Assembly: GCA_008273105.1 (NCBI GenBank) | Contig: GCA_008273105.1_4080.1 | From: a phage | Reading direction: 5' to 3' (one strand) | Length of the DNA: 64,000 bases | Shown: one piece after another, positions 19,227 to 49,420 of the stretch | How the letters are laid out: each line of letters begins with the position of its first letter | Numbering within the stretch: position 1 is the stretch's first letter | Translations under genes and position numbers: made by a program | Notes under the pieces: generated by a model | Database searches by the model: none | What the model saw: the letters and a program-made list of their open reading frames with translations, nothing else | What the model was told of the DNA's origin: nothing

Positions 19227-20666
19227 TTACATATTTTCTTCAGCAAATTCTGCAAGTGGTGAACGAACAACACCTTCTAGTTCGATGACACGACAACCTG
19301 CCCAATCTTTAAACTTCTCAGTTACATATGTCAAACCACTGTTAACAGGACTAATAAACTTACTGTCAATCTGACTCAAGTTACCCATAATTACTACTTT
19401 ACAGTTTAATCCTGCTCGTGTCAAGATTGTTTTAGCTTGTGCAGGTGTAATGTTTTGGAATTCATCAACTACTAGAATAGTGTTGGTGAATGAACGTCCA
19501 CGTACAAAGTTTAGTGCTTTAAATTGAATAACATTACGTTTCATAATCTCTTCAATACTACCTTGAGGGTTAGCATCATCTTTATGAAGAAACTCTAACG
19601 CGTCAATTGCGGCTCCACAGAATGGAATCACTTTTTCTGCTTCTGAACCTGGCAAGAAACCAATATCTTCAAACTGTGAGTCTTGAGTTTTAGAGAAGAT
19701 GATTCGGTCGTATTTACGTTTTTCCAGTACTAATTCTAATGCAGTAGCAATCGTAATTAGTGTTTTACCAGTACCAGCAGAACCTAGCAGTACTGTTAGA
19801 TGTACATCAGGATCGAGAATACTGTTGATGGCGAGTGCTTGTTGGATATTCTTTGCTTTAATATCCCATACTTTAGCACGTAAAGCTACTGATTGTCCAA
19901 TATCTTGGAATACCAAAATATCTTCTGGTGTTAGTGTTCCATCATCTTCCTCAATTGCTGATTGACCTTCGTACACAAATAATACGTCTGCATCATCATA
20001 TAGATAATCACCGATGCATAGATTTTGTGGAAGCAAATGTTCAATCAAGCTTTTAGAAATGTAATGATACAAACGACGACCAACTTGTTCGGATTGAATA
20101 TTAGTATTGGTTAAGTTGCTATATACTTCCCAAAAATTAATTTCCAAATGGTGTTGACCAATGTGAATCAAATCACTATCACCAATAACAATATCATGGC
20201 GATAATCTTGTACCTCGACACCATAACTTAGTGCTTTGATACGCATGTTGATATCACGAGTTACCAGTACTGATTCTGTTGCTAAAGCTACCAGAATGAT
20301 TTTATCATCAGGTACTGTGCTTTTGAGAAGGGTTTGAACTTTCTCTTCTGAACCTTTAGTACGAATTAGTGCTTCAGCTTCTTCGTTTGTAATAACAAAC
20401 AATTTGCTATCAGGATTCATATTGGTATGAACATCAGCAATATTAACACCAGTACTACTAATCTCATCATGTGATGCATCTGCAATAATTGCTTCAATGT
20501 TACGAATAGCAACACGAGCATCGCGTGAAACATCTACATTACGACTCTTAATTGAATCCAATTCTTCCAGTACTGTAAATGGTAGAATGATTGCAGCACC
20601 ATCAAAAGCAATAGATGCATTAGGGTCAGATAGTAGTACGTTTGTGTCAATTGTATATTTTTTCAT
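19227..20666 (-). CDS. phoH: PhoH-like ATPase with N-terminal PIN domain
   Basis: Walker A LLGSAGTGKTLITIA; PIN-like N-terminus (MKKYTIDTNVLLSDPNA...LEELD); 479 aa. Confidence 0.8.
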   Translation of the reverse strand: MKKYTIDTNVLLSDPNASIAFDGAAIILPFTVLEELDSIKSRNVDVSRDARVAIRNIEAIIADASHDEISSTGVNIADVHTNMNPDSKLFVITNEEAEALIRTKGSEEKVQTLLKSTVPDDKIILVALATESVLVTRDINMRIKALSYGVEVQDYRHDIVIGDSDLIHIGQHHLEINFWEVYSNLTNTNIQSEQVGRRLYHYISKSLIEHLLPQNLCIGDYLYDDADVLFVYEGQSAIEEDDGTLTPEDILVFQDIGQSVALRAKVWDIKAKNIQQALAINSILDPDVHLTVLLGSAGTGKTLITIATALELVLEKRKYDRIIFSKTQDSQFEDIGFLPGSEAEKVIPFCGAAIDALEFLHKDDANPQGSIEEIMKRNVIQFKALNFVRGRSFTNTILVVDEFQNITPAQAKTILTRAGLNCKVVIMGNLSQIDSKFISPVNSGLTYVTEKFKDWAGCRVIELEGVVRSPLAEFAEENM

Positions 20667-20726: not shown

Positions 20727-21029
20727 TTACATATTTGGTTCGTATTCAACATAGCAACGTGAACCTCGAACCTTTTCTTCCCAGCACTCCTGGTAAACAA
20801 GTTGACCAATTGAAACTGGTTCTCTTGATAGTCCATTACGTACTTCACCACTTTGGGTTTTATACATAAATGAACATTTGGACTCGCTACATTGTCCTAA
20901 ACTAACAACTTCTGCGGTATTGTAGTGAATGTTGGTACGCTTAGTGTTCTCGTGATACTGTCCGAACCAAAGAACTCCTGCACCTAACAGAACAGTACAA
21001 ATAAGACTTTTGATGTGTGTTTGAATCAT
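20727..21029 (-). CDS. small membrane-anchored Cys-containing protein (100 aa)
   Basis: N-terminal hydrophobic segment LICTVLLGAGVLWF. Confidence 0.45.
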   Translation of the reverse strand: MIQTHIKSLICTVLLGAGVLWFGQYHENTKRTNIHYNTAEVVSLGQCSESKCSFMYKTQSGEVRNGLSREPVSIGQLVYQECWEEKVRGSRCYVEYEPNM

Positions 21030-21346
21030 AATGAGTTAAATCCATTGTTTAAGTATGTTTCAATATTAATTTTACCAACAGGATTACTACTGTGAACAAA
21101 GTACTCAAACGGTTCTTTAATATTATTATCAAACATATAATCAATAAGAAACTTAGCAAAAGAATATCCAGTCTTTTCGTCTTCGCTCACATCACCCAAG
21201 TCATGGTCGAATGATACAAATGCTGGAATTCCATTTTCAATAACATATTCACATGCACTTTTAAAGTCACGACATACCACCATATCTTGGTTTGGATAAT
21301 ATAGATTTGCATCACGAATATCATCCAAAAACATTGAGTAAGACAT
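21026..21346 (-). CDS. hypothetical protein, possibly receiver-fold-like (106 aa)
   Basis: Track ORF co-located with the Sir2-like and Nudix-like genes; contains FDHDLGD and HSSNPVGK; fold assignment speculative. Confidence 0.4.
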   Translation of the reverse strand: MSYSMFLDDIRDANLYYPNQDMVVCRDFKSACEYVIENGIPAFVSFDHDLGDVSEDEKTGYSFAKFLIDYMFDNNIKEPFEYFVHSSNPVGKINIETYLNNGFNSL

Positions 21347-21355
21347 GTTAAACTC

Positions 21356-21907
21356 CTATAGATAACTAATTAGTAAGTTTTCTTTTTGAACCAGATACTC
21401 CAATTCTTGTTTTGCTGTACCGATGAAGTTCTGTGTCATAAGATTATTATATCCCGCTTCTCGATTTTGTCCCTTAGAATAACGCGAAATATGACATAAA
21501 TTTACACCAGCAACTTCTGCACTTGCATGTTTAGCATTAGTGTATCCATCTCTAATGTGTTTCAACTCGTCATAGGTTACTTCATAGCTAAAACTGTGAC
21601 TGTTTGCACCTGGGTAAATTTCAAAAGTTTTGAGTGGTCGAAGATGGGAAACAAAAATATTGTAATCCATTTCTTCTTGAACTTCACGACGCAACGCATC
21701 TTCTAGTGAGATATCAGTACTTTCTACGGTTCCACCACATCCACCAAGAAGACCATCCCATCGTAATTGCAGTAATACTAAATTTACTTCTGGTATATCA
21801 TTCAACTCATAGTTTTTGTAAGGGTTGCATTTTCTTGCAAAGAAATAACAAAATACAAAATTTGCACGTGTGCCATATTCACCAAAGGGAACTTCTTTAA
21901 CACTCAT
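21356..21907 (-). CDS. putative Nudix-family hydrolase (degenerate Nudix box)
   Basis: GGCGGTVE...RREVQEEMDY approximates the G-x5-E-x7-R-E-U-x-E-E-x-G-U box but with a longer spacer and D in place of G. Confidence 0.4.
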   Translation of the reverse strand: MSVKEVPFGEYGTRANFVFCYFFARKCNPYKNYELNDIPEVNLVLLQLRWDGLLGGCGGTVESTDISLEDALRREVQEEMDYNIFVSHLRPLKTFEIYPGANSHSFSYEVTYDELKHIRDGYTNAKHASAEVAGVNLCHISRYSKGQNREAGYNNLMTQNFIGTAKQELEYLVQKENLLISYL

Positions 21908-22662
21908 TTCATACGTTCCTTAATTATAGTCTCTAGATGCGGTATTGCTTTGGTTGCTGGCTTGATAACTTTTTCATTAAACAAAAAATCATTATCATTT
22001 TTACGAATGTTAACATTAACACTATAACATGGTAATGCTGCTGCTAATCTCGACCATACCAGTACTGTATCGCTACTACCAATTACAATAACTGTATCAT
22101 TTTCATTAAGAGATTTCAACACATTATTTCGTTCTTCGTAAATTGGTAAGCGAATACCATCAACATAACGATGATATTCTCCAATCATTACTACATTTGG
22201 TTTGGCAAAAACATCATGTTTTGGTATGTATGGTTCGTATCCGCAGTTAATAACATTATAATCATCAGAATTGATACTATAATTTTCAATAACTTCACAC
22301 AAGTTTCCATGAAGTTTAAGCTCATGACCACCAATACGAGTATAAAGATCGTCCATGTTAGAAGTCATATGAAGGAAGCAATCACCATATTGATCTTCTA
22401 ACGATTTTATAAAATAATGCATTGCATTTGGTTCGCATTGTCCCAATTTTACACGTAATGTATTATAGAAAGAATGAACAACATGATATTTTGTAGTTAA
22501 ACTAGCAATGTTACATACATCATTAATTTTAAATGTATCCCACAAACCATCATCAAATCGAAAAGGTTCCATACCACTTTCAACAGAAAGTCCTGCACCT
22601 GATATAATCAGTAATCGCTTTTTACCTTCATTGCTTATAAATTTTTCTGATATCATATTCAA
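21904..22662 (-). CDS. Sir2-family (sirtuin-like) NAD-dependent protein
   Basis: ISGAGLSVESGMEPFRFDDGLWD matches the GAGIS-x-x-SGIP-x-FR signature; TSNMDDLYTRIGG and LKLHG (candidate catalytic His) in expected order; VVMIGE and IVIGSS blocks. Confidence 0.6.
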   Translation of the reverse strand: MNMISEKFISNEGKKRLLIISGAGLSVESGMEPFRFDDGLWDTFKINDVCNIASLTTKYHVVHSFYNTLRVKLGQCEPNAMHYFIKSLEDQYGDCFLHMTSNMDDLYTRIGGHELKLHGNLCEVIENYSINSDDYNVINCGYEPYIPKHDVFAKPNVVMIGEYHRYVDGIRLPIYEERNNVLKSLNENDTVIVIGSSDTVLVWSRLAAALPCYSVNVNIRKNDNDFLFNEKVIKPATKAIPHLETIIKERMK

Positions 22663-22887: not shown

Positions 22888-23481
22888 TTAATATTTTAAA
22901 ACATCAAACTCTTCGCTTACGCTTGTTACATTATCACTAACAATTTTAAAAATTGATTTGATACGTTCGTGTAGTGGTTTTTTAGATTCGTTCTCAACTT
23001 CAATATATGCTTGCATTGCTGCAATTGCATGATATGTCCCACTACCTACTGCGGTAATTCTTGTTTTAGGTTGTAGTACTGAAAAGTCTTCTTGAACTTC
23101 ATAGATTGTATGATTGTGGAGAATGATAAATTGTCCACCACCTACATCTTGTGATGCATCTCGTGCACCCCATTCTTCTTTAAACATTTGACGAATGATT
23201 GGAATAACTTTAAGAACCAAATATTGTGAAAATGTTTGACTAGCATCTTGTTCAGGTAAATTAAGGTTATAATTTAACAACTGACCCATACGAAATGATG
23301 TAGTATAACCCAATGCCATTACTTCTTTAGTTCTAGTTAGTCCATCATCATGTAACTTGATAAATTCTTTCTCGAATACCTTTGGCTCAGTTTGAACAGT
23401 TTTTGTAAATCCATTGCTTCCTAACTTATCCCCAGCAATAAAAGAACTTACTCCGTCAGTGTGTGCAATAATACAGGTCAT
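22888..23481 (-). CDS. HslV/proteasome-like N-terminal-Thr peptidase (about 197 aa)
   Basis: From internal ATG at 23481 the product begins MTCIIAHTDGVSSFIAGDKLGS (compare HslV TTIVSVRRNGHVVIAGDGQ); C-terminal AVGSGTYHAIAAMQA resembles HslV AIGSGGPYAQAAA; track ORF extends to 23550. Confidence 0.5.
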   Translation of the reverse strand: MTCIIAHTDGVSSFIAGDKLGSNGFTKTVQTEPKVFEKEFIKLHDDGLTRTKEVMALGYTTSFRMGQLLNYNLNLPEQDASQTFSQYLVLKVIPIIRQMFKEEWGARDASQDVGGGQFIILHNHTIYEVQEDFSVLQPKTRITAVGSGTYHAIAAMQAYIEVENESKKPLHERIKSIFKIVSDNVTSVSEEFDVLKY

Positions 23482-23738
23482 AAAATAGCTCCAATTGCAA
23501 ATAATGTTGTGTATAAGATATAAATTAGTGCTCCTAACAACATTAGGCACACCAAGTATGAAGTTGATAGTACATAATAAATTATTGCTTCGAATTTTGA
23601 ATTGAACTTCATTGTAGTTGGATCAATAAAGCCATTACGATAATCTTTGTAAATGAAAACTGTTAGAAAAATAACTGTAGCATACATTACTACAGTAGCA
23701 TAAAAAATAATAGATGTCAAGTTTTGGATGTTTGTCAT
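23478..23738 (-). CDS. small membrane protein (86 aa)
   Basis: Three hydrophobic segments; stop overlaps the HslV-like start (ATGA). Confidence 0.45.
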   Translation of the reverse strand: MTNIQNLTSIIFYATVVMYATVIFLTVFIYKDYRNGFIDPTTMKFNSKFEAIIYYVLSTSYLVCLMLLGALIYILYTTLFAIGAIL

Positions 23739-23808
23739 AGTTATATAATCTCAATATAATTAATAACAAAGGAAGTACATCATAATCATCCTGTTATTTT
23801 AATTATTT

Positions 23809-24432
23809 TTATTGTTTGACTGAACCGTAAAAAACCAGTTCTGGTTTTGTTAATATTACAACATCTTCACCACGAGAACGACTAACTCTAAATAGAACTT
23901 CTGGTGGGATTCCATTTGCTGCATATAGTGAAAAAAGGAAACCTACCTTTGTTGCCATTTCTTCGGTAAAAGTTGATAGCTGTCTTACAGACACAAATGA
24001 ATTATCACCATCAGTAACATTACTTTTAATCGAAATGTTATGAAGACCCAGTACTGAGCGATTTGTCATATATCGCTTTTCGGGAGATACACTAAAGAAT
24101 ACCACAGTACATGCTGAATTGCAATACCTAGAAACAATTAAATTTATCCCATTGTCTCTAACAAAGTTTGCCATTCGAATACCTGCATCAAAATCACCAC
24201 CAGGAGATGTAATTGTGATGGTATCATAGTGTTCTTTATCATACAACTCTATCATTCTCTTGAGTGACCCATCTGTAATATCTGATATGAAATATACATT
24301 TCGGGTTTCAGGATTATACTTTATCACATTTTTACTTTCAATACCAGCACTGGCTGGAAAATTTATTAACAATAGAAACATCGCTGCTTGTATCACTTCA
24401 AGCCATAGTCTTTTCATATAACAAGTCCTCAA
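23809..24432 (-). CDS. signal-peptide-bearing ClpP/SppA-fold protein
   Basis: N-terminal hydrophobic signal (AAMFLLLINFPASAG); ITSPGGDFDAGIRMANF resembles the ClpP/S49 SPGG block; catalytic triad not clearly identifiable. Confidence 0.4.
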   Translation of the reverse strand: MRTCYMKRLWLEVIQAAMFLLLINFPASAGIESKNVIKYNPETRNVYFISDITDGSLKRMIELYDKEHYDTITITSPGGDFDAGIRMANFVRDNGINLIVSRYCNSACTVVFFSVSPEKRYMTNRSVLGLHNISIKSNVTDGDNSFVSVRQLSTFTEEMATKVGFLFSLYAANGIPPEVLFRVSRSRGEDVVILTKPELVFYGSVKQ

Positions 24433-24543
24433 TTTTGTTTAGGAAGATATAAATAATATAGTACTTAAACACTTAAGTCAAACTTTTTCTGTACTTAACT
24501 CAAATTTTTAAAAATAAAACTTAAGGTGTACAGTTTATAACAG

Positions 24544-24572
24544 ATCATATCATACCACTGATGTTTTGTCAA
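24544..24572 (-). promoter_or_regulatory. sigma70-like promoter (TTGACA, 17 nt, TATGAT) on minus strand
   Basis: Read on the minus strand: TTGACA aaacatcagtggtatga TATGAT, about 110 nt upstream of the 23809..24432 gene. Confidence 0.45.
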
Positions 24573-24642
24573 CTAGTTCATGGTGCATCTGATGTAAAAA
24601 ACAAATATATTTCATACTTATATTTAAAAAAGGAAATAAAAT

Positions 24643-25020
24643 ATGAAAGCTATCGCAGCACAAGGTAAACTACCATTCAATATCGGCGGGTTTTGTGTAA
24701 CCGCAGCTAATATAAACGGTGAATTGAAATATAACTTGAACATCTTTAATCAACGTTCTAGTTGTGTTTACGATCTCATTGATACTGATTTTAATGTTTA
24801 TCGTTTTGTAACTATCACTAGTTATGATAAAGATAAAATTAGATTAGATGCATCTAAAACAGCATTGGAAATTGCACCAACTCTAGCCAAAAACACTTTT
24901 TGTATTAAGATTGACGATAGTGCATTTGCCGAATCATTCCAGTTTCATAAAATTAAATTGAGTACTGGTGCGATGAAATATCACCCTTGGGATTTGTATT
25001 ATTGTAACCTCCCTGGTTAA
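24643..25020 (+). CDS. hypothetical protein (125 aa); only convincing plus-strand gene in the window
   Basis: RBS AAAAGGAAAT 6-8 nt before ATG; followed at once by a bidirectional terminator; flanked by a 210-nt divergent intergenic region. Confidence 0.55.
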   Translation: MKAIAAQGKLPFNIGGFCVTAANINGELKYNLNIFNQRSSCVYDLIDTDFNVYRFVTITSYDKDKIRLDASKTALEIAPTLAKNTFCIKIDDSAFAESFQFHKIKLSTGAMKYHPWDLYYCNLPG

Positions 25021-45112: not shown

Positions 45113-45389
45113 AATTTATTCCTTCTAACTGATATACGTTTAATGAAAATGACCCACTATTATTATCGCATCTGAAACACAGTGTTAAAGAACCATTAAA
45201 ACTAACTACATCCGTACAGATACATTTTTCACCATTGGATATGATAGATTTTCCTATATATAAATCTCTTACTATAGTACGGTAATGTTGCCATAAAAAA
45301 TAATACACACTTTCATAGTACTCATCTTTTACATATGATAAGTATAAGAATTTATAAAATACTTGTATTTCCTTTAAGTTGTTTTTCAT
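45105..45389 (-). CDS. small protein, paralog family B (94 aa)
   Basis: N-terminal EIQVFYKFLYLSY shared with neighbouring ORFs. Confidence 0.5.
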   Translation of the reverse strand: MKNNLKEIQVFYKFLYLSYVKDEYYESVYYFLWQHYRTIVRDLYIGKSIISNGEKCICTDVVSFNGSLTLCFRCDNNSGSFSLNVYQLEGINFE

Positions 45390-45663
45390 TCTCCAACTCC
45401 AGTAAATTTACACCAATCCAATCAACATCACTATCAGTACTTAATTCCAATCGTAGCTTACCGCTATGACTAACAATATCGCGAAATTTGTATATTTTAT
45501 TATCACGAACTATACACAAATCATGGTAATATTCATGTAATTCATCCAAAAACTTTATCCATACCGAACGATATATTTCACTGTAGAGATATTCTCCAGC
45601 ATCAACCGTAGCGTATTGGATATACAAAAATTTGTATGTGAATTGTATATCATTTAATAACAT
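45352..45663 (-). CDS. small protein, paralog family B (103 aa)
   Basis: N-terminal LNDIQFTYKFLYIQY. Confidence 0.5.
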   Translation of the reverse strand: MLLNDIQFTYKFLYIQYATVDAGEYLYSEIYRSVWIKFLDELHEYYHDLCIVRDNKIYKFRDIVSHSGKLRLELSTDSDVDWIGVNLLELENEKQLKGNTSIL

Positions 45664-45673
45664 ATGTAACCTC

Positions 45674-45985
45674 TTATAAATTCACCAACTTCACAACTTT
45701 AATCTCGATAAATCCCCTATCGGTTATTTCCTGAAATTGAACATGGATTATACCATTATATGATTGCACACCATAGAAATCGAATTTATCATTTCCATCG
45801 ATAAAAGTACTGTAATTCTTTTTTATATATTCACCTACTGAATCTAAGTACTCAATATATAAATCAATAAATGGTTGTTCTTTGGATCGGTTATGTGAAC
45901 CTATGTTGTTACTAACAAGGTATACATCATACAAATCATATAGGATCTTATAAGTGAATTGTATATCATTTAAATTTAATCCCAA
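45674..45985 (-). CDS. small protein, paralog family B (103 aa)
   Basis: N-terminal LNDIQFTYKILYDLY. Confidence 0.5.
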   Translation of the reverse strand: MGLNLNDIQFTYKILYDLYDVYLVSNNIGSHNRSKEQPFIDLYIEYLDSVGEYIKKNYSTFIDGNDKFDFYGVQSYNGIIHVQFQEITDRGFIEIKVVKLVNL

Positions 45986-46242
45986 GGGAATATCTCCAAC
46001 GGAATACTGGTAAATCCAAAATCAGTGTAGTACTGAACCTCAACTTTACCATCACGTCTAATGATTATATCAGAAAATTCTGCATGGTCATCACCAATAA
46101 TAACAGTACTGAATTTTTTTTTAATCTTACCACGAATCGTATGAATCATTTCAGTGCATGTGTCTTCTAGACTAGGGCTATCATTGTCGTGTGCTAAATC
46201 TTGAATAATCTTGTATGTTAGTAGGAAATCTTTATAATTCAT
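45976..46242 (-). CDS. small protein, paralog family B (88 aa)
   Basis: N-terminal YKDFLLTYKIIQDL. Confidence 0.5.
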   Translation of the reverse strand: MNYKDFLLTYKIIQDLAHDNDSPSLEDTCTEMIHTIRGKIKKKFSTVIIGDDHAEFSDIIIRRDGKVEVQYYTDFGFTSIPLEIFPWD

Positions 46243-46514
46243 ATGTCCACCAAATCTATACTATATCTTTCATTAGTATTACTATCTATAAATGATAGTA
46301 CTAATTTACCACCAAAACTATTAACTTGTTCTATCTTCTGTTTTTTACCACGAATGATTATCTCACTATTAACAAAATATTCACGTATCATTATTAAGTG
46401 ATTAATCCAGATAGTATGAGTGAATGTGTTTTCTCGTATTGTATTGAGATATCTTCCATTGTGATGTAAATCAAACAAAACACTGTATGTATATTGTAGA
46501 ACTTTATAATTCAT
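46239..46514 (-). CDS. small protein, paralog family B (91 aa)
   Basis: N-terminal YKVLQYTYSVLFDL. Confidence 0.5.
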   Translation of the reverse strand: MNYKVLQYTYSVLFDLHHNGRYLNTIRENTFTHTIWINHLIMIREYFVNSEIIIRGKKQKIEQVNSFGGKLVLSFIDSNTNERYSIDLVDI

Positions 46515-46560: not shown

Positions 46561-47247
46561 TTATTCATCGTCGTCATCGTCATCTAGATCGATATAGATA
46601 CTATCATCACCATCATCAAAGTACTCCACAATAACTCCTGGAATATTAAGAGCAGTAAACATTGCATCATATTTCTCATCAGATGGAATCAAAACAAATT
46701 CATCAATGTTTTGAACTTCTGGCATTTTATCTTCGGGGATACCCATATCAACAAGTGACTGAATAATCTTTTCTTTGAATTCTAAAAACTTCTCTTCAGA
46801 TTCAAAATCCATAATAAGCTGTGCAACATATCCTTCATCGTTACCGAATGAAATTGACATTTGTGCATCAGTACCGACATAGCACCAAACACGTTTACCT
46901 GTGTGCTGCTCAATAAAGTTTTGAATCTGTAACACAATGTCATGGCGAGAACTGTTAGCAATGTTGTTAAGATTTTCTACACCAGCATTAATTCCAGTAC
47001 TGTCATTTGTTTCTTCAAATTCACCATAATCACCCAATACATACTGTACACCTTCATGATGTAATGCATATGCATAGTCAAGGTCAGCGAGTGAATCGCA
47101 CTTTCCACGGATCGGACGTAGGGAAAGACCTAAGCGAAGATAACGGAAGTATGTATTAGTATTTGTATTTGTCAACGTAATGCTCCTTAACAATATAAAA
47201 GTAGTTGCTGTTATTGTCAAAAAAGATAACCATCCCTTTATAGACAT
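46561..47247 (-). CDS. acidic protein with poly-Asp C-terminus (start uncertain)
   Basis: C-terminus EYFDDGDDSIYIDLDDDDDDE; 5' part overlaps ORF 47156..47455 so the true start is probably internal. Confidence 0.45.
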   Translation of the reverse strand: MSIKGWLSFLTITATTFILLRSITLTNTNTNTYFRYLRLGLSLRPIRGKCDSLADLDYAYALHHEGVQYVLGDYGEFEETNDSTGINAGVENLNNIANSSRHDIVLQIQNFIEQHTGKRVWCYVGTDAQMSISFGNDEGYVAQLIMDFESEEKFLEFKEKIIQSLVDMGIPEDKMPEVQNIDEFVLIPSDEKYDAMFTALNIPGVIVEYFDDGDDSIYIDLDDDDDDE

Positions 47248-47455
47248 TTACACCAATTTTGATTTCACATATGTTATTTGATTTACTCGCTTCAGTCAAT
47301 AACATTTTGTGCTCTTTACTGAAAGTGTGGAACAGTGGTTTGACATGCCACATTTCGATACCATCCAGTACTGAAAATTTTTCACTAAATTTAATCATTG
47401 ATTCTTGTAAAAAATATCCTGTAAGATTTATTTCATCACACATGCAAGTTTCCAA
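47156..47455 (-). CDS. hypothetical protein (99 aa)
   Basis: Track ORF. Confidence 0.4.
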   Translation of the reverse strand: METCMCDEINLTGYFLQESMIKFSEKFSVLDGIEMWHVKPLFHTFSKEHKMLLTEASKSNNICEIKIGVNVYKGMVIFFDNNSNYFYIVKEHYVDKYKY

Positions 47456-47729
47456 GAAAATTAATCACATCTGCATGTGATAATGTATCATTACCTTCTA
47501 GTACATTAATGATAAACGGCACTTGGCGATATAGTTCAGCCAGGAATTGTACCTCATCAGATGTGTAAGAATATCCCATAGGAACAACCTGTGCAGTCCA
47601 GTTTCCTAGAGTTTTGTTAGCAATAATTGCAACTACAGTATTACCTTTGTATTCAACATGGATGGAACGAAATCCTGATTGCTCATTTTGATCCCAAAGT
47701 ACTGGATTGGTTTTGAACAGTACTGACAT
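47436..47729 (-). CDS. hypothetical protein (97 aa)
   Basis: Track ORF. Confidence 0.45.
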   Translation of the reverse strand: MSVLFKTNPVLWDQNEQSGFRSIHVEYKGNTVVAIIANKTLGNWTAQVVPMGYSYTSDEVQFLAELYRQVPFIINVLEGNDTLSHADVINFLGNLHV

Positions 47730-47731
47730 AA

Positions 47732-48265
47732 TTATTTCCTCATGTATTTTATAACGTCTTCAAATAATTGTATTTTTAAGTCCTCGTCATTTCCAGGTAA
47801 AAACTCACGAAAACTATCAAAATCTTCATTTTTTGCGAAGTTACGCATTTGTGTTGAGCTATATTGACTTACATTACGGTCAATACCTGCCTGAATTGCT
47901 TTTATACTACAAAAATTATACAACTTACCATTGTACATGTCAAGAGTTTTTTGAAAAGAATCAATACGGTCAGAACCACAAATGAAAAGAACATCTAAGT
48001 ACTTTCCATCCAGTTCTCTCATTATATCAAATAGATTGTCTTCTGTGTAGATGTTCTCTTGCACTGAAGGATAGAATCCCTCTGTATAATACATTTTTAG
48101 TTCAGGTGGGAGTGGGTTTTTTATATTGTCAGTACTGGTGCTTAGATATATTTTTAAATCAGCATTGTACTGTTCTTGTAATGTTTTGGCCTTTTCAAAA
48201 ACTAAACCATGTCCACGATGTACAGGATTAATACGACCAAACGTTAATACACATGTTTCTTTCAT
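47732..48265 (-). CDS. NMN-adenylyltransferase-like nucleotidyltransferase (HxGH family)
   Basis: TFGRINPVHRGH resembles the GRFQPFHKGH active-site motif of NadM-type NMN adenylyltransferases; 177 aa. Confidence 0.55.
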   Translation of the reverse strand: MKETCVLTFGRINPVHRGHGLVFEKAKTLQEQYNADLKIYLSTSTDNIKNPLPPELKMYYTEGFYPSVQENIYTEDNLFDIMRELDGKYLDVLFICGSDRIDSFQKTLDMYNGKLYNFCSIKAIQAGIDRNVSQYSSTQMRNFAKNEDFDSFREFLPGNDEDLKIQLFEDVIKYMRK

Positions 48266-48783
48266 AGATTCTTCATCACCAATCCGAGAGATTTAAGATA
48301 ATTAATTTTAGCAGTAGTGAGGTACTTATCAAGGACTATAAGACACGAAGGAAATGGTGCTGAATCTGTTTTCTTATCAGGTTCTTCTGGAATACCAAAA
48401 CGTAATCTACCTTTGATAAAACAAATACAATCACATATTTTGGCTGCATATTCCTGAAATGCTATTGTATCAGTCCTGGATGGTACTAGAATCAGTACTG
48501 TAGCACCTTTATTATACGCATCTACTGCCTTGGCTAACCAAGTTTTTAAATCACTATATGGGGGATTTAACCAAACAATATTTTTTCCCCAGTCTTGTTC
48601 AAGAGAATTATCATCAGGTGTAAAATAGTTATCACACAATGCAGTCTCATCAACACAAGCAGCATCAAGTGTAAATCCCCATAACTCATCCAAATCTTCA
48701 AAGAAATCTTTGGGAGTTGTCCAGTTGTCCTTTCCAGTACTGAAATGTACTGAATGTTTTTTCGAAGCATCCTTCTTCGACAT
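48262..48783 (-). CDS. phage Dam-type DNA N6-adenine methyltransferase
   Basis: FSTGKDNWTTPKDFFEDL, FTLDAAC and VWLNPPYS (NPPY catalytic motif); about 173 aa. Confidence 0.75.
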   Translation of the reverse strand: MSKKDASKKHSVHFSTGKDNWTTPKDFFEDLDELWGFTLDAACVDETALCDNYFTPDDNSLEQDWGKNIVWLNPPYSDLKTWLAKAVDAYNKGATVLILVPSRTDTIAFQEYAAKICDCICFIKGRLRFGIPEEPDKKTDSAPFPSCLIVLDKYLTTAKINYLKSLGLVMKNL

Positions 48784-48799
48784 TATATAATTCCTTTTG

Positions 48800-49420
48800 T
48801 TAGAGACAGTTGTGTACTATCTTATCAAAAGTACTACTGTCAATGTTATATTCATATAAAAATTTAAAATGTGAACCGTAACGCATCATCAGATTAAACT
48901 CTTCTTCAGTATTGAACTTGTAATCATGAATAGTCTCAGGGGTACATTTTAAACCCAAGAATTCTATAATTTCAGATGTTACATCATATCCTGAATTGAA
49001 GTATTTAACCCAAACACATTTTCCTTGTGGGTTGTATTTTCTATATTCTCCTTCTAGTTCTCCTTTAATAATATGAGCCTTAACACTTATTGAATTATTA
49101 CTATATCTTTCTTCAAAATAATTACCATACTGGGCTTTTGATATTGTTGGTTTTTGAGTAGGAAGTAATTTAACTGAAGTCACTTCAATTCCATTTTGTA
49201 ATTCCTTTATATAAGAAATGCATCCTTTTTCTTTAATAACCACATATCCAGTAAAGATATCTTCGTCTTGTGATTGATTAATGCAATCATCAAAATTCAA
49301 AGTTTTATAAGTAACAGTTTTTTCTTTTCTAATAAATGCCATCATTATTCCTATGGAAACATCAATGAATATACGTGACGTTGATTGCATCAACATCAGT
49401 AGAATTATCATGCTACGCAT
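48800..49420 (-). CDS. hypothetical protein (206 aa or shorter)
   Basis: Track ORF; first about 25 residues probably read through non-coding sequence (internal MMAFIRKEK start likely). Confidence 0.45.
   Translation of the reverse strand: MRSMIILLMLMQSTSRIFIDVSIGIMMAFIRKEKTVTYKTLNFDDCINQSQDEDIFTGYVVIKEKGCISYIKELQNGIEVTSVKLLPTQKPTISKAQYGNYFEERYSNNSISVKAHIIKGELEGEYRKYNPQGKCVWVKYFNSGYDVTSEIIEFLGLKCTPETIHDYKFNTEEEFNLMMRYGSHFKFLYEYNIDSSTFDKIVHNCL

Follow-up and report, generated by a model that had tools for sequence, protein, structure and literature searches.

The stretch of DNA examined here, hereafter the window, is a 64,000-nucleotide piece of a phage genome (GenBank assembly GCA_008273105.1, contig GCA_008273105.1_4080.1), and our subject is a pair of adjoining genes at its positions 47,732 to 48,783, one encoding a DNA methylase of the Dam family and the other a small nucleotidyltransferase with an HxGH motif. 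A preliminary description of the window had called both open reading frames (ORFs), and both were confirmed, on the minus strand. The methylase ORF (48262..48783, minus strand; 173 aa) is the upstream gene of the pair and the orthologue of gp417 of Escherichia phage 121Q, and the transferase ORF (47732..48265, minus strand; 177 aa) is the downstream gene and the orthologue of the 121Q 'cytidyltransferase', gp418. On balance, we regard the transferase as probably the catalytic domain, in stand-alone form, of a large clade of HIGH-motif nucleotidyltransferases (HxGH/TxGH ... ISxTxxR) confined to phages, and its pairing with Dam as a matter of inheritance.

Between positions 47000 and 49500, the window is 97.6% identical to the Escherichia phages vB_EcoM_G17, Sharanji, phAPEC6, and 121Q, which are jumbo myoviruses of the genus Asteriusvirus with genomes of about 350 kb, and by this match we assign the source phage to Asteriusvirus as a 121Q/G17-like jumbo coliphage. 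Because gp417 and gp418 of 121Q are labelled 'DNA methyltransferase' and 'cytidyltransferase' in GenBank, the locus is already publicly annotated; the gp418 record also bears a spurious note, 'NrdB ribonucleotide reductase A'. Both genes have been annotated before in 121Q, PBECO4, phAPEC6, and other phages, and the transferase gene receives no discussion in the papers on the jumbo coliphages fEgEco12, JP4, and phAPEC6. It is an unremarkable locus, annotated previously and belonging to a phage family that is known but uncharacterised. The locus itself matters little, and the coupling proposed for it, whether to Dam or to a nicotinamide adenine dinucleotide (NAD) module, fails.

The two genes overlap by four nucleotides, as the preliminary description had noted, in the order opposite to the one it gave. 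In the ATGA at 48262..48265 (minus strand), the ATG of the transferase (48265..48263) overlaps the TGA of the methylase (48264..48262), which makes Dam the upstream gene and the transferase the downstream one. A Shine-Dalgarno-like GGTGA (48276..48280, minus strand) lies within the 3' end of the methylase gene, 10 nt 5' of the transferase ATG, so that the transferase may also be initiated independently. Nor does the overlap stand out in this genome, because the 42.5 kb of 121Q that match contain 91 pairs of adjoining genes, of which 45 overlap, and an overlap of exactly 4 nt (14/91) is the commonest junction type there.

Motifs, fold and relatives of the transferase

The transferase contains TFGRINPVHRGH, in which HRGH (residues 16-19; 48209..48220, minus strand) is the nucleotide-binding motif, and it carries a second signature of the ISxTxxR type, SSTQMR (residues 136-141; 47843..47860, minus strand), which aligns to ISSSIVR of PPAT. 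Across 30 diverse relatives (alignment A2), H19 and R141 are invariant; G18 and S136 are nearly invariant, and the first His of HRGH is Thr in most relatives. A confident AlphaFold2 model made with 13 orthologues has the expected alternating strand-helix fold (predicted local distance difference test score 88.7; predicted template modelling score 0.83). The protein joins both motifs to a Rossmann-like fold with a five-stranded parallel sheet, the features that define the HIGH superfamily. The superfamily calls of the preliminary description, an HxGH nucleotidyltransferase beside a Dam-family N6-adenine methyltransferase, are correct.

Scores against curated family models were low throughout. 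FAD_syn of Pfam gave 17.3 bits (cut-off 27); the best NCBIfam matches, NadD TIGR00482 (19.8 vs a cut-off of 112.45) and RibF models, covered only the first 30-40 residues, and NF000840 gave 15.3 (cut-off 150). No NadM, NadR, or CoaD model appeared among the NCBIfam matches, none of which came near its cut-off; phmmer found no PDB sequence at E<10, and no PADLOC defence model matched. By curated models, the transferase falls in no characterised family.

In Foldseek, PPAT came first (E 1.2e-5, template modelling (TM) score 0.63-0.70), essentially tied with NadD (2e-5) and human NMNAT1 (4e-5). With a profile of the 30 diverse relatives, PPAT again led, in a full-length alignment (25.5 bits, E 1e-4), followed by NadD (21.9), MJ0541 (21.5), and a NadM (21.2). 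The preliminary description had taken a first place for PPAT as counting against a nicotinamide mononucleotide (NMN) adenylyltransferase (NMNAT); what emerged is a tie, with PPAT nominally first and NadD and NMNAT1 alongside. These comparisons suggest that the protein forms a branch of its own, with NMNAT and PPAT at about equal distance. The same scores could be read as the mark of a PPAT-like enzyme that makes dephospho-coenzyme A or a related pantetheine nucleotide, since PPAT supplied both the best structural matches and the sole full-length profile alignments, is near in size (177 aa vs about 160), and shares TxGH with most of the family. However, hhalign to E. coli CoaD returned a probability of 10% (a lead only), the absence of any CoaD model match in NCBIfam has been mentioned, and the G-L-R motif of PPAT aligns to G-S-D-R in the family, a different chemistry. 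No coenzyme A (CoA)-related neighbour was present in any gene context examined, and there is no obvious need for a phage PPAT because the hosts have CoaD. We consider a PPAT-like activity highly unlikely.

Among phage proteins, the transferase matches phrog_3041 (8.5e-58) and phrog_395 (9.9e-25), both labelled 'cytidyltransferase', and we place it on these grounds in the phage clade PHROG 3041/395, the 'cyanophage cytidylyltransferase' T4-GC0190. The Yersinia phage fHe-Yen9-03 protein g057 is annotated in just these terms, as 'cyanophage-encoded cytidylyltransferase, T4 GC0190', and in BFVD the transferase compares with proteins of the cyanophages S-PM2, P-TIM68, and S-RIM2 at TM scores of 0.85-0.90. 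The signatures of the clade are GRxNP(P/V)(T/H)xGH, KNPL, K57, GSDR, YNGxxYxF, AGxR, and SxS(T/A)xMR, and the first position of the nucleotide-binding motif is Thr rather than His in most members. A word-index homologue search with a diverse profile reached only 38 proteins, and an exhaustive hidden Markov model search reached 3412 representative clusters at E<1e-3 and 2247 at E<1e-10. The family is carried by 566 records of isolated phages, including 375 Synechococcus phages, 61 entries named 'Cyanophage', 24 Prochlorococcus phages, and 33 Escherichia phages (Asteriusvirus); further hosts include Klebsiella, Salmonella, Erwinia, Pseudomonas (PA5oct-like phages), Xanthomonas, and others. It belongs to the core genes of the T4-like cyanophages, and it is also present in the Rak2-like and PA5oct-like jumbo phages.

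Most metagenomic members of the clade are 300-1200 aa long, with an N-terminal transferase domain ahead of long uncharacterised stretches. In 62 multidomain relatives, Pfam recognises DUF5824 (15/62), a Zeta-toxin/AAA_33 P-loop kinase (5/62), and ParB_N (1/62), and a methyltransferase domain in none (0/62). One other member contains a Hint/intein, and the member in Vibrio phage EniLVp02 is fused to UvsW.1. S-RIM8 encodes the long form in two pieces, as adjacent 'cytidyltransferase' genes of 385 and 572 aa. Members have been detected in the virion proteomes of S-SCSM1, S-SZBM1, and S-CREM2 (PMC9602691, PMC9146016, PMC10665884), and the function of the clade 'remains unclear' according to one of these cyanophage papers (PMC9146016). 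We found no biochemical characterisation of any member in the literature, and no literature on DUF5824 or DUF6267. Labels vary among records, from 'cytidyltransferase' to 'NMNAT' and even 'ribonucleotide reductase A'. The HxGH clade is among the most widespread 'auxiliary' enzymes of phages without a known substrate, and thousands of annotations are affected.

The Dam-family methylase and the gene order around the pair

The upstream gene matches Pfam PF05869 (Dam) with 110.9 bits (E 6.6e-32; cut-off 28.1), phrog_111 (3.3e-56), and the PADLOC 'orphan methyltransferase' model (1e-33), and with 92.7 bits it falls narrowly under the cut-off of the equivalog TIGR01712 (97.05). Its catalytic motif IV, NPPY, occupies residues 73-76 (48556..48567, minus strand). 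A search of PDB sequences gave no match to the Dam protein. From these matches, we take it to be an orphan Dam-family DNA N6-adenine methyltransferase. The phage orphan Dams of T1 and VT2/933W, which belong to PF05869, methylate GATC. Despite the methylase that the phage encodes, GATC occurs only 85 times in the window, vs 212 expected, and the genome-wide ratio in the complete relative OR844650.1 is 0.51, an overall depletion of about 2-fold to 2.5-fold. Other tetranucleotides also deviate: GCGC is wholly absent both from the window (0 vs 20 expected) and from the 352-kb congener OR844650.1 (0 vs 160 expected), GTAC is over-represented by a factor of about 1.4, and the window is poor in CCGG and GGCC.

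Dam and the transferase stand within a conserved block, in the order upstream gene, Dam, transferase, small gene, (...), 228-aa gene. The first gene of the block encodes 206 aa (phrog_16210; 48800..49420, minus strand), and the small gene 97 aa (phrog_14956; 47436..47729, minus strand). All five genes have homologues in Salmonella phage 7t3, Cronobacter phage GAP32, and Yersinia phage Yen9-03, and the first four have them in Klebsiella phage RCIP0023, where the 228-aa gene had no match within the stretch fetched; Pectobacterium phage CBB is annotated with the same order. Homologues of the 206-aa gene lie directly 5' of Dam in 7t3, RCIP0023, Yen9-03, and GAP32, and those of the 97-aa gene lie directly 3' of the transferase in 7t3, GAP32, and Yen9-03 and one gene further in RCIP0023. 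The spacing between Dam and the transferase varies from -4 nt (window and RCIP0023) and -8 (7t3) to +3 (GAP32), +8 (Yen9-03), and +21 (CBB). The five-gene block was seen only in enterobacterial Rak2-like phages.

Outside these phages, the transferase keeps other company. No Dam neighbour was present in PAC2, Vibrio phage 2.275.O, S-RIM8, DLP_6, Melnitz, EniLVp02, or three metagenome contigs. The neighbours are a Kelch-like protein and DNA polymerase in the PA5oct-like phage PAC2, tail-fibre-like genes in Vibrio phage 2.275.O, and a primase-helicase, MazG, and DUF6267 in cyanophage S-RIM8; DLP_6, Melnitz, and EniLVp02 offer other contexts again. The three metagenomic contigs share no neighbour, one transferase lying near Nudix and ribonucleotide reductase genes, one near DnaJ/ClpB, and one among genes that are all unknown.

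Even within the genus, the pair can be interrupted. In ECO103 4-12-1 and EC22.5-2, the methylase stop and the transferase start are separated precisely by an insertion of about 0.85 kb (OR844650.1, about 259454-260301; junction at window 48177-48243). Its product, a 261-aa protein that contains two CapR-homology zinc domains, resembles a homing endonuclease. Recoding has affected roughly the first 30 codons of the transferase (ILSFMRCNPIHNGHGFVFNSALELKEQ), which is consistent with a co-conversion tract. The insertion in a congener and the different contexts elsewhere imply that the Dam/transferase pair is neither obligatorily coupled nor independently recurrent. These observations suggest that the two genes adjoin through inherited gene order in the enterobacterial Rak2-like jumbo phages and do not appear to cooperate.

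The preliminary description had proposed, as one option, that the transferase acts together with the methyltransferase. In its most specific form, the enzyme would be a cytidylyl- or adenylyltransferase for a sugar, polyol, or other phosphate, supplying a donor for the modification of phage DNA or nucleotides, possibly with Dam. The adjacency of the genes and the 'cytidyltransferase' label speak for this view at first sight. However, the label derives from a generic Pfam name, and the adjacency is explained by a block synteny that a mobile gene interrupts. No fusion to a methyltransferase or glycosyltransferase occurs among the 62 multidomain relatives, and no Dam neighbour is seen beyond one clade. 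In addition, cytidylyltransferases score below adenylyltransferases against the protein, no close structural or profile match to a glycerol-3-phosphate or choline-phosphate cytidylyltransferase was found, and their RTEGISTT signature is absent. The proposal is not supported, and we judge a modification donor to be very unlikely.

Two observations on neighbouring genes are added here. The 206-aa gene (48800-49420) shows weak similarity (E 2e-5, 30% over 80 aa) to the C-terminus of the gene 3' of the transferase homologue in Vibrio phage 2.275.O, a match that is probably driven by repeats, with a MORN-like motif visible by eye. Four tandem small ORFs of 88-103 aa (45352-46514, minus strand) look like paralogues by eye, with the N-terminal pattern L(N)DIQFTYK.LYD / MNYK..(L/Q)(L/Y)TY.

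The NAD module in the window and in related phages

The other option in the preliminary description was an NMNAT that belongs with an 'NAD module' 25 kb away. This module consists of a Sir2 gene (21904..22662) and a Nudt16-like Nudix gene (21356..21907, minus strand), whose products use or process NAD or its derivatives; both genes are indeed present, but no NAD-synthesis gene was found at the Sir2-Nudix group. In the syntenic region of CBB, the order is dCMP deaminase, a NadM-Nudix NMNAT (gp113), gp114, Nampt (gp115), further genes, Sir2, Nudix, and PhoH. The pair of Nampt and NadM-Nudix also occurs in GAP32, Serratia phage BF, the Yersinia phages Yen9-03 and Yen9-04, Erwinia phages, the Salmonella phages 7t3 and Munch, the Klebsiella phages K64-1 and RCIP0023, and Escherichia phage EJP2.

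With CBB Nampt and NadM-Nudix as queries, tblastn gave no match in the window, and none in the complete 351,992-bp genome of ECO103 4-12-1, which is 97-99% identical (PnuC was not searched for). From that genome, Sir2, Nudix, PhoH, dCMP deaminase, and the small transferase, its single member of the transferase family, were all recovered. The site in the window syntenic to that of Nampt and NadM-Nudix (22888-25020) holds only ORFs without a significant Pfam match (220 aa and 207 aa). Unlike its sister genera, therefore, Asteriusvirus appears, from these comparisons, to have lost the NARP2-type pair of Nampt and NadM-Nudix and to have kept Sir2-Nudix-PhoH.

CBB retains the small transferase next to Dam (gp072/gp073) alongside its NadM-Nudix, and the Dam-adjacent transferase is likewise present in the other sampled genomes that have Nampt and NadM-Nudix. 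Gene content thus suggests that a canonical NMNAT is already part of the NAD module in this phage group, and that the small transferase is a gene apart, conserved in its own right. The tie between an NMNAT at this locus and the NAD module does not survive, and the presence of a separate canonical NMNAT in the sister genera lowers the NMNAT reading in general, although two NMNATs do occur in some phages (PMC7824862).

An NMNAT could nevertheless stand alone and work without Nampt, regenerating NAD+ either from NMN, such as that set free by a host NAD-dependent ligase, or by way of nicotinic acid mononucleotide (NaMN). The absence of Nampt from the Asteriusvirus genome by tblastn counts against it, as does the ATP-dependence of the Asteriusvirus ligase. 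Synechococcus phages, which hold most of the family records, are outside the ten best-represented groups with Nampt matches. PPAT scores equal or exceed those of the NMNAT types, the NMNAT-type model scores lie far under the curated cut-offs, and the match to NadM spans only the nucleotide-binding N-terminal third of the transferase, leaving a C-terminal half that is unaligned and variable in the family. We consider a stand-alone NMNAT unlikely, though less so than the PPAT-like enzyme and the modification donor.

Two features of the Sir2 region deserve record in their own right. A cREC ('cyclic-phosphate processing receiver') ORF (21026..21346, minus strand) is in frame with the Nudix ORF (21356..21907), with a stop codon between them. 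In CBB, Nudix and cREC form one 299-aa protein that aligns across the window stop with 54% identity, and the same stop is found in a congener genome; it could reflect a split gene, a pseudogene, or readthrough. Immediately 3' of the Sir2-Nudix-cREC group lies a PIN_4-PhoH fusion of 479 aa (19227-20666, minus strand), 72% identical to CBB gp123.

Candidate reaction and comparison with known systems

In characterised HIGH transferases, the two motifs bind the phosphates of a nucleoside triphosphate (NTP), and the nucleoside monophosphate (NMP) moiety is moved to a phosphate or carboxylate of the second substrate, with pyrophosphate freed. By analogy, HRGH and SSTQMR would hold an NTP, probably ATP; the conserved basic and polar set K49-N50-P51-L52, K57, D99-R100, Y111-N112, and R130 would position a phosphorylated small-molecule acceptor; and the NMP would be transferred to the phosphate (or carboxylate) of this acceptor, with release of pyrophosphate. 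The Lys of KNPL aligns with SAKNPM of H. pylori PPAT and with DPKNPF in the NadM domain of CBB gp113, and in PPAT the loop that contains this Lys binds the acceptor phosphate. This alignment favours a phospho-ester acceptor, and the protein is most likely an NTP:phospho-acceptor nucleotidyltransferase. The best single candidate for the acceptor is NMN or NaMN, giving NAD or nicotinic acid adenine dinucleotide (NaAD), a tentative choice that we would expect to prove wrong more often than right. An acceptor other than all those considered here is at least as likely, and has perhaps close to an even chance or better. For the remainder, the transferase may not be catalytic at all.

The reading that we prefer, a free-standing domain of the phage clade set beside Dam by inheritance, builds on what the analysis showed, namely the fold and motifs, membership of the family, the pattern of synteny, and the lack of a Nampt/NadM partner. 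Several points weigh against it. First, catalysis, nucleotide preference, and acceptor are extrapolated for the clade as a whole. Second, the transferase scores 17.3 bits against Pfam PF01467 (CTP_transf_like), below the gathering score of 21; relatives do pass (GAP32_069 with 27.4 bits, S-RIM8 with 27.5), and 44 of the 62 relatives match. Third, hhalign of the family profile with the NadM domain of CBB gp113 gave a probability of 80% (E 1.5e-5), an alignment limited to the N-terminal 59 columns (GRxxPxHxGH, KNP(F/L)) and ending at column 66. In NadM-type enzymes, as archaeal NMNAT structures show, NMN is bound by a D..N..W segment in the C-terminal half; the corresponding region of the family is variable in alignment A2 and lies beyond the end of the sequence-profile alignment. 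Fourth, a functional pair would also fit an adjacency to Dam kept across about 39% protein identity, block synteny being the simpler explanation. Finally, cyanophage authors term the relatives 'NMNAT-like' (PMC9602691, PMC10665884).

It is also conceivable, if improbable, that the whole clade, which comprises thousands of metagenomic clusters and often occurs in virions in the form of long multidomain proteins, catalyses a reaction not yet described for phages. The reaction may then be a Nampt-independent regeneration of NAD+ from NMN early in infection, or may yield a nucleotide-linked metabolite for host takeover or counter-defence. If this were true, the jumbo-phage gene would be the minimal catalytic form, and its 177 aa would offer an entry point for the biochemistry of the clade.

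Among known systems, the NadM-type NMNATs (M. jannaschii MJ0541, the Francisella NadM-Nudix 2qjt, and NARP2 Nmnat, such as CBB gp113) align with the transferase in its N-terminal third only, and the transferase differs from them in having no Nudix fusion, Nampt partner, or curated model match and in coexisting with a genuine NadM-Nudix in the sister genera. The NadR-like bifunctional NMNAT/nicotinamide riboside kinase of phage NARP3 (Bas30_86; PMC13464706) shares the HIGH transferase domain, and a minority of the long relatives also have a P-loop kinase. However, the window protein has no kinase domain, no PnuC neighbour was seen (no search aimed at PnuC was made), and the kinases of the relatives are of the Zeta-toxin/AAA_33 type. 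CoaD/PPAT resembles the transferase in size, in full-length alignment, in its top Foldseek and profile scores, and in the TxGH of most family members, but identity is only 13-18%, GSDR and YNG motifs replace GLR...DFEYE of PPAT, and the CoA context is missing. The neighbouring methylase resembles the phage orphan Dams of PF05869, scoring above the gathering cut-off, with NPPY, a length of about 170 aa, and no separate target-recognition domain. The transferase is itself a member of the 'cyanophage cytidylyltransferase' family (Syn9 gp184, the S-PM2 'cytitidyltransferase', GAP32_069, and 121Q gp418). It is at least 97% identical to 121Q gp418 and 30-39% identical to the cyanophage and GAP32 members, and it has the same domain with all the signature residues; the jumbo-phage form consists of the domain alone and has HxGH, whereas most members of the family are long and have TxGH.

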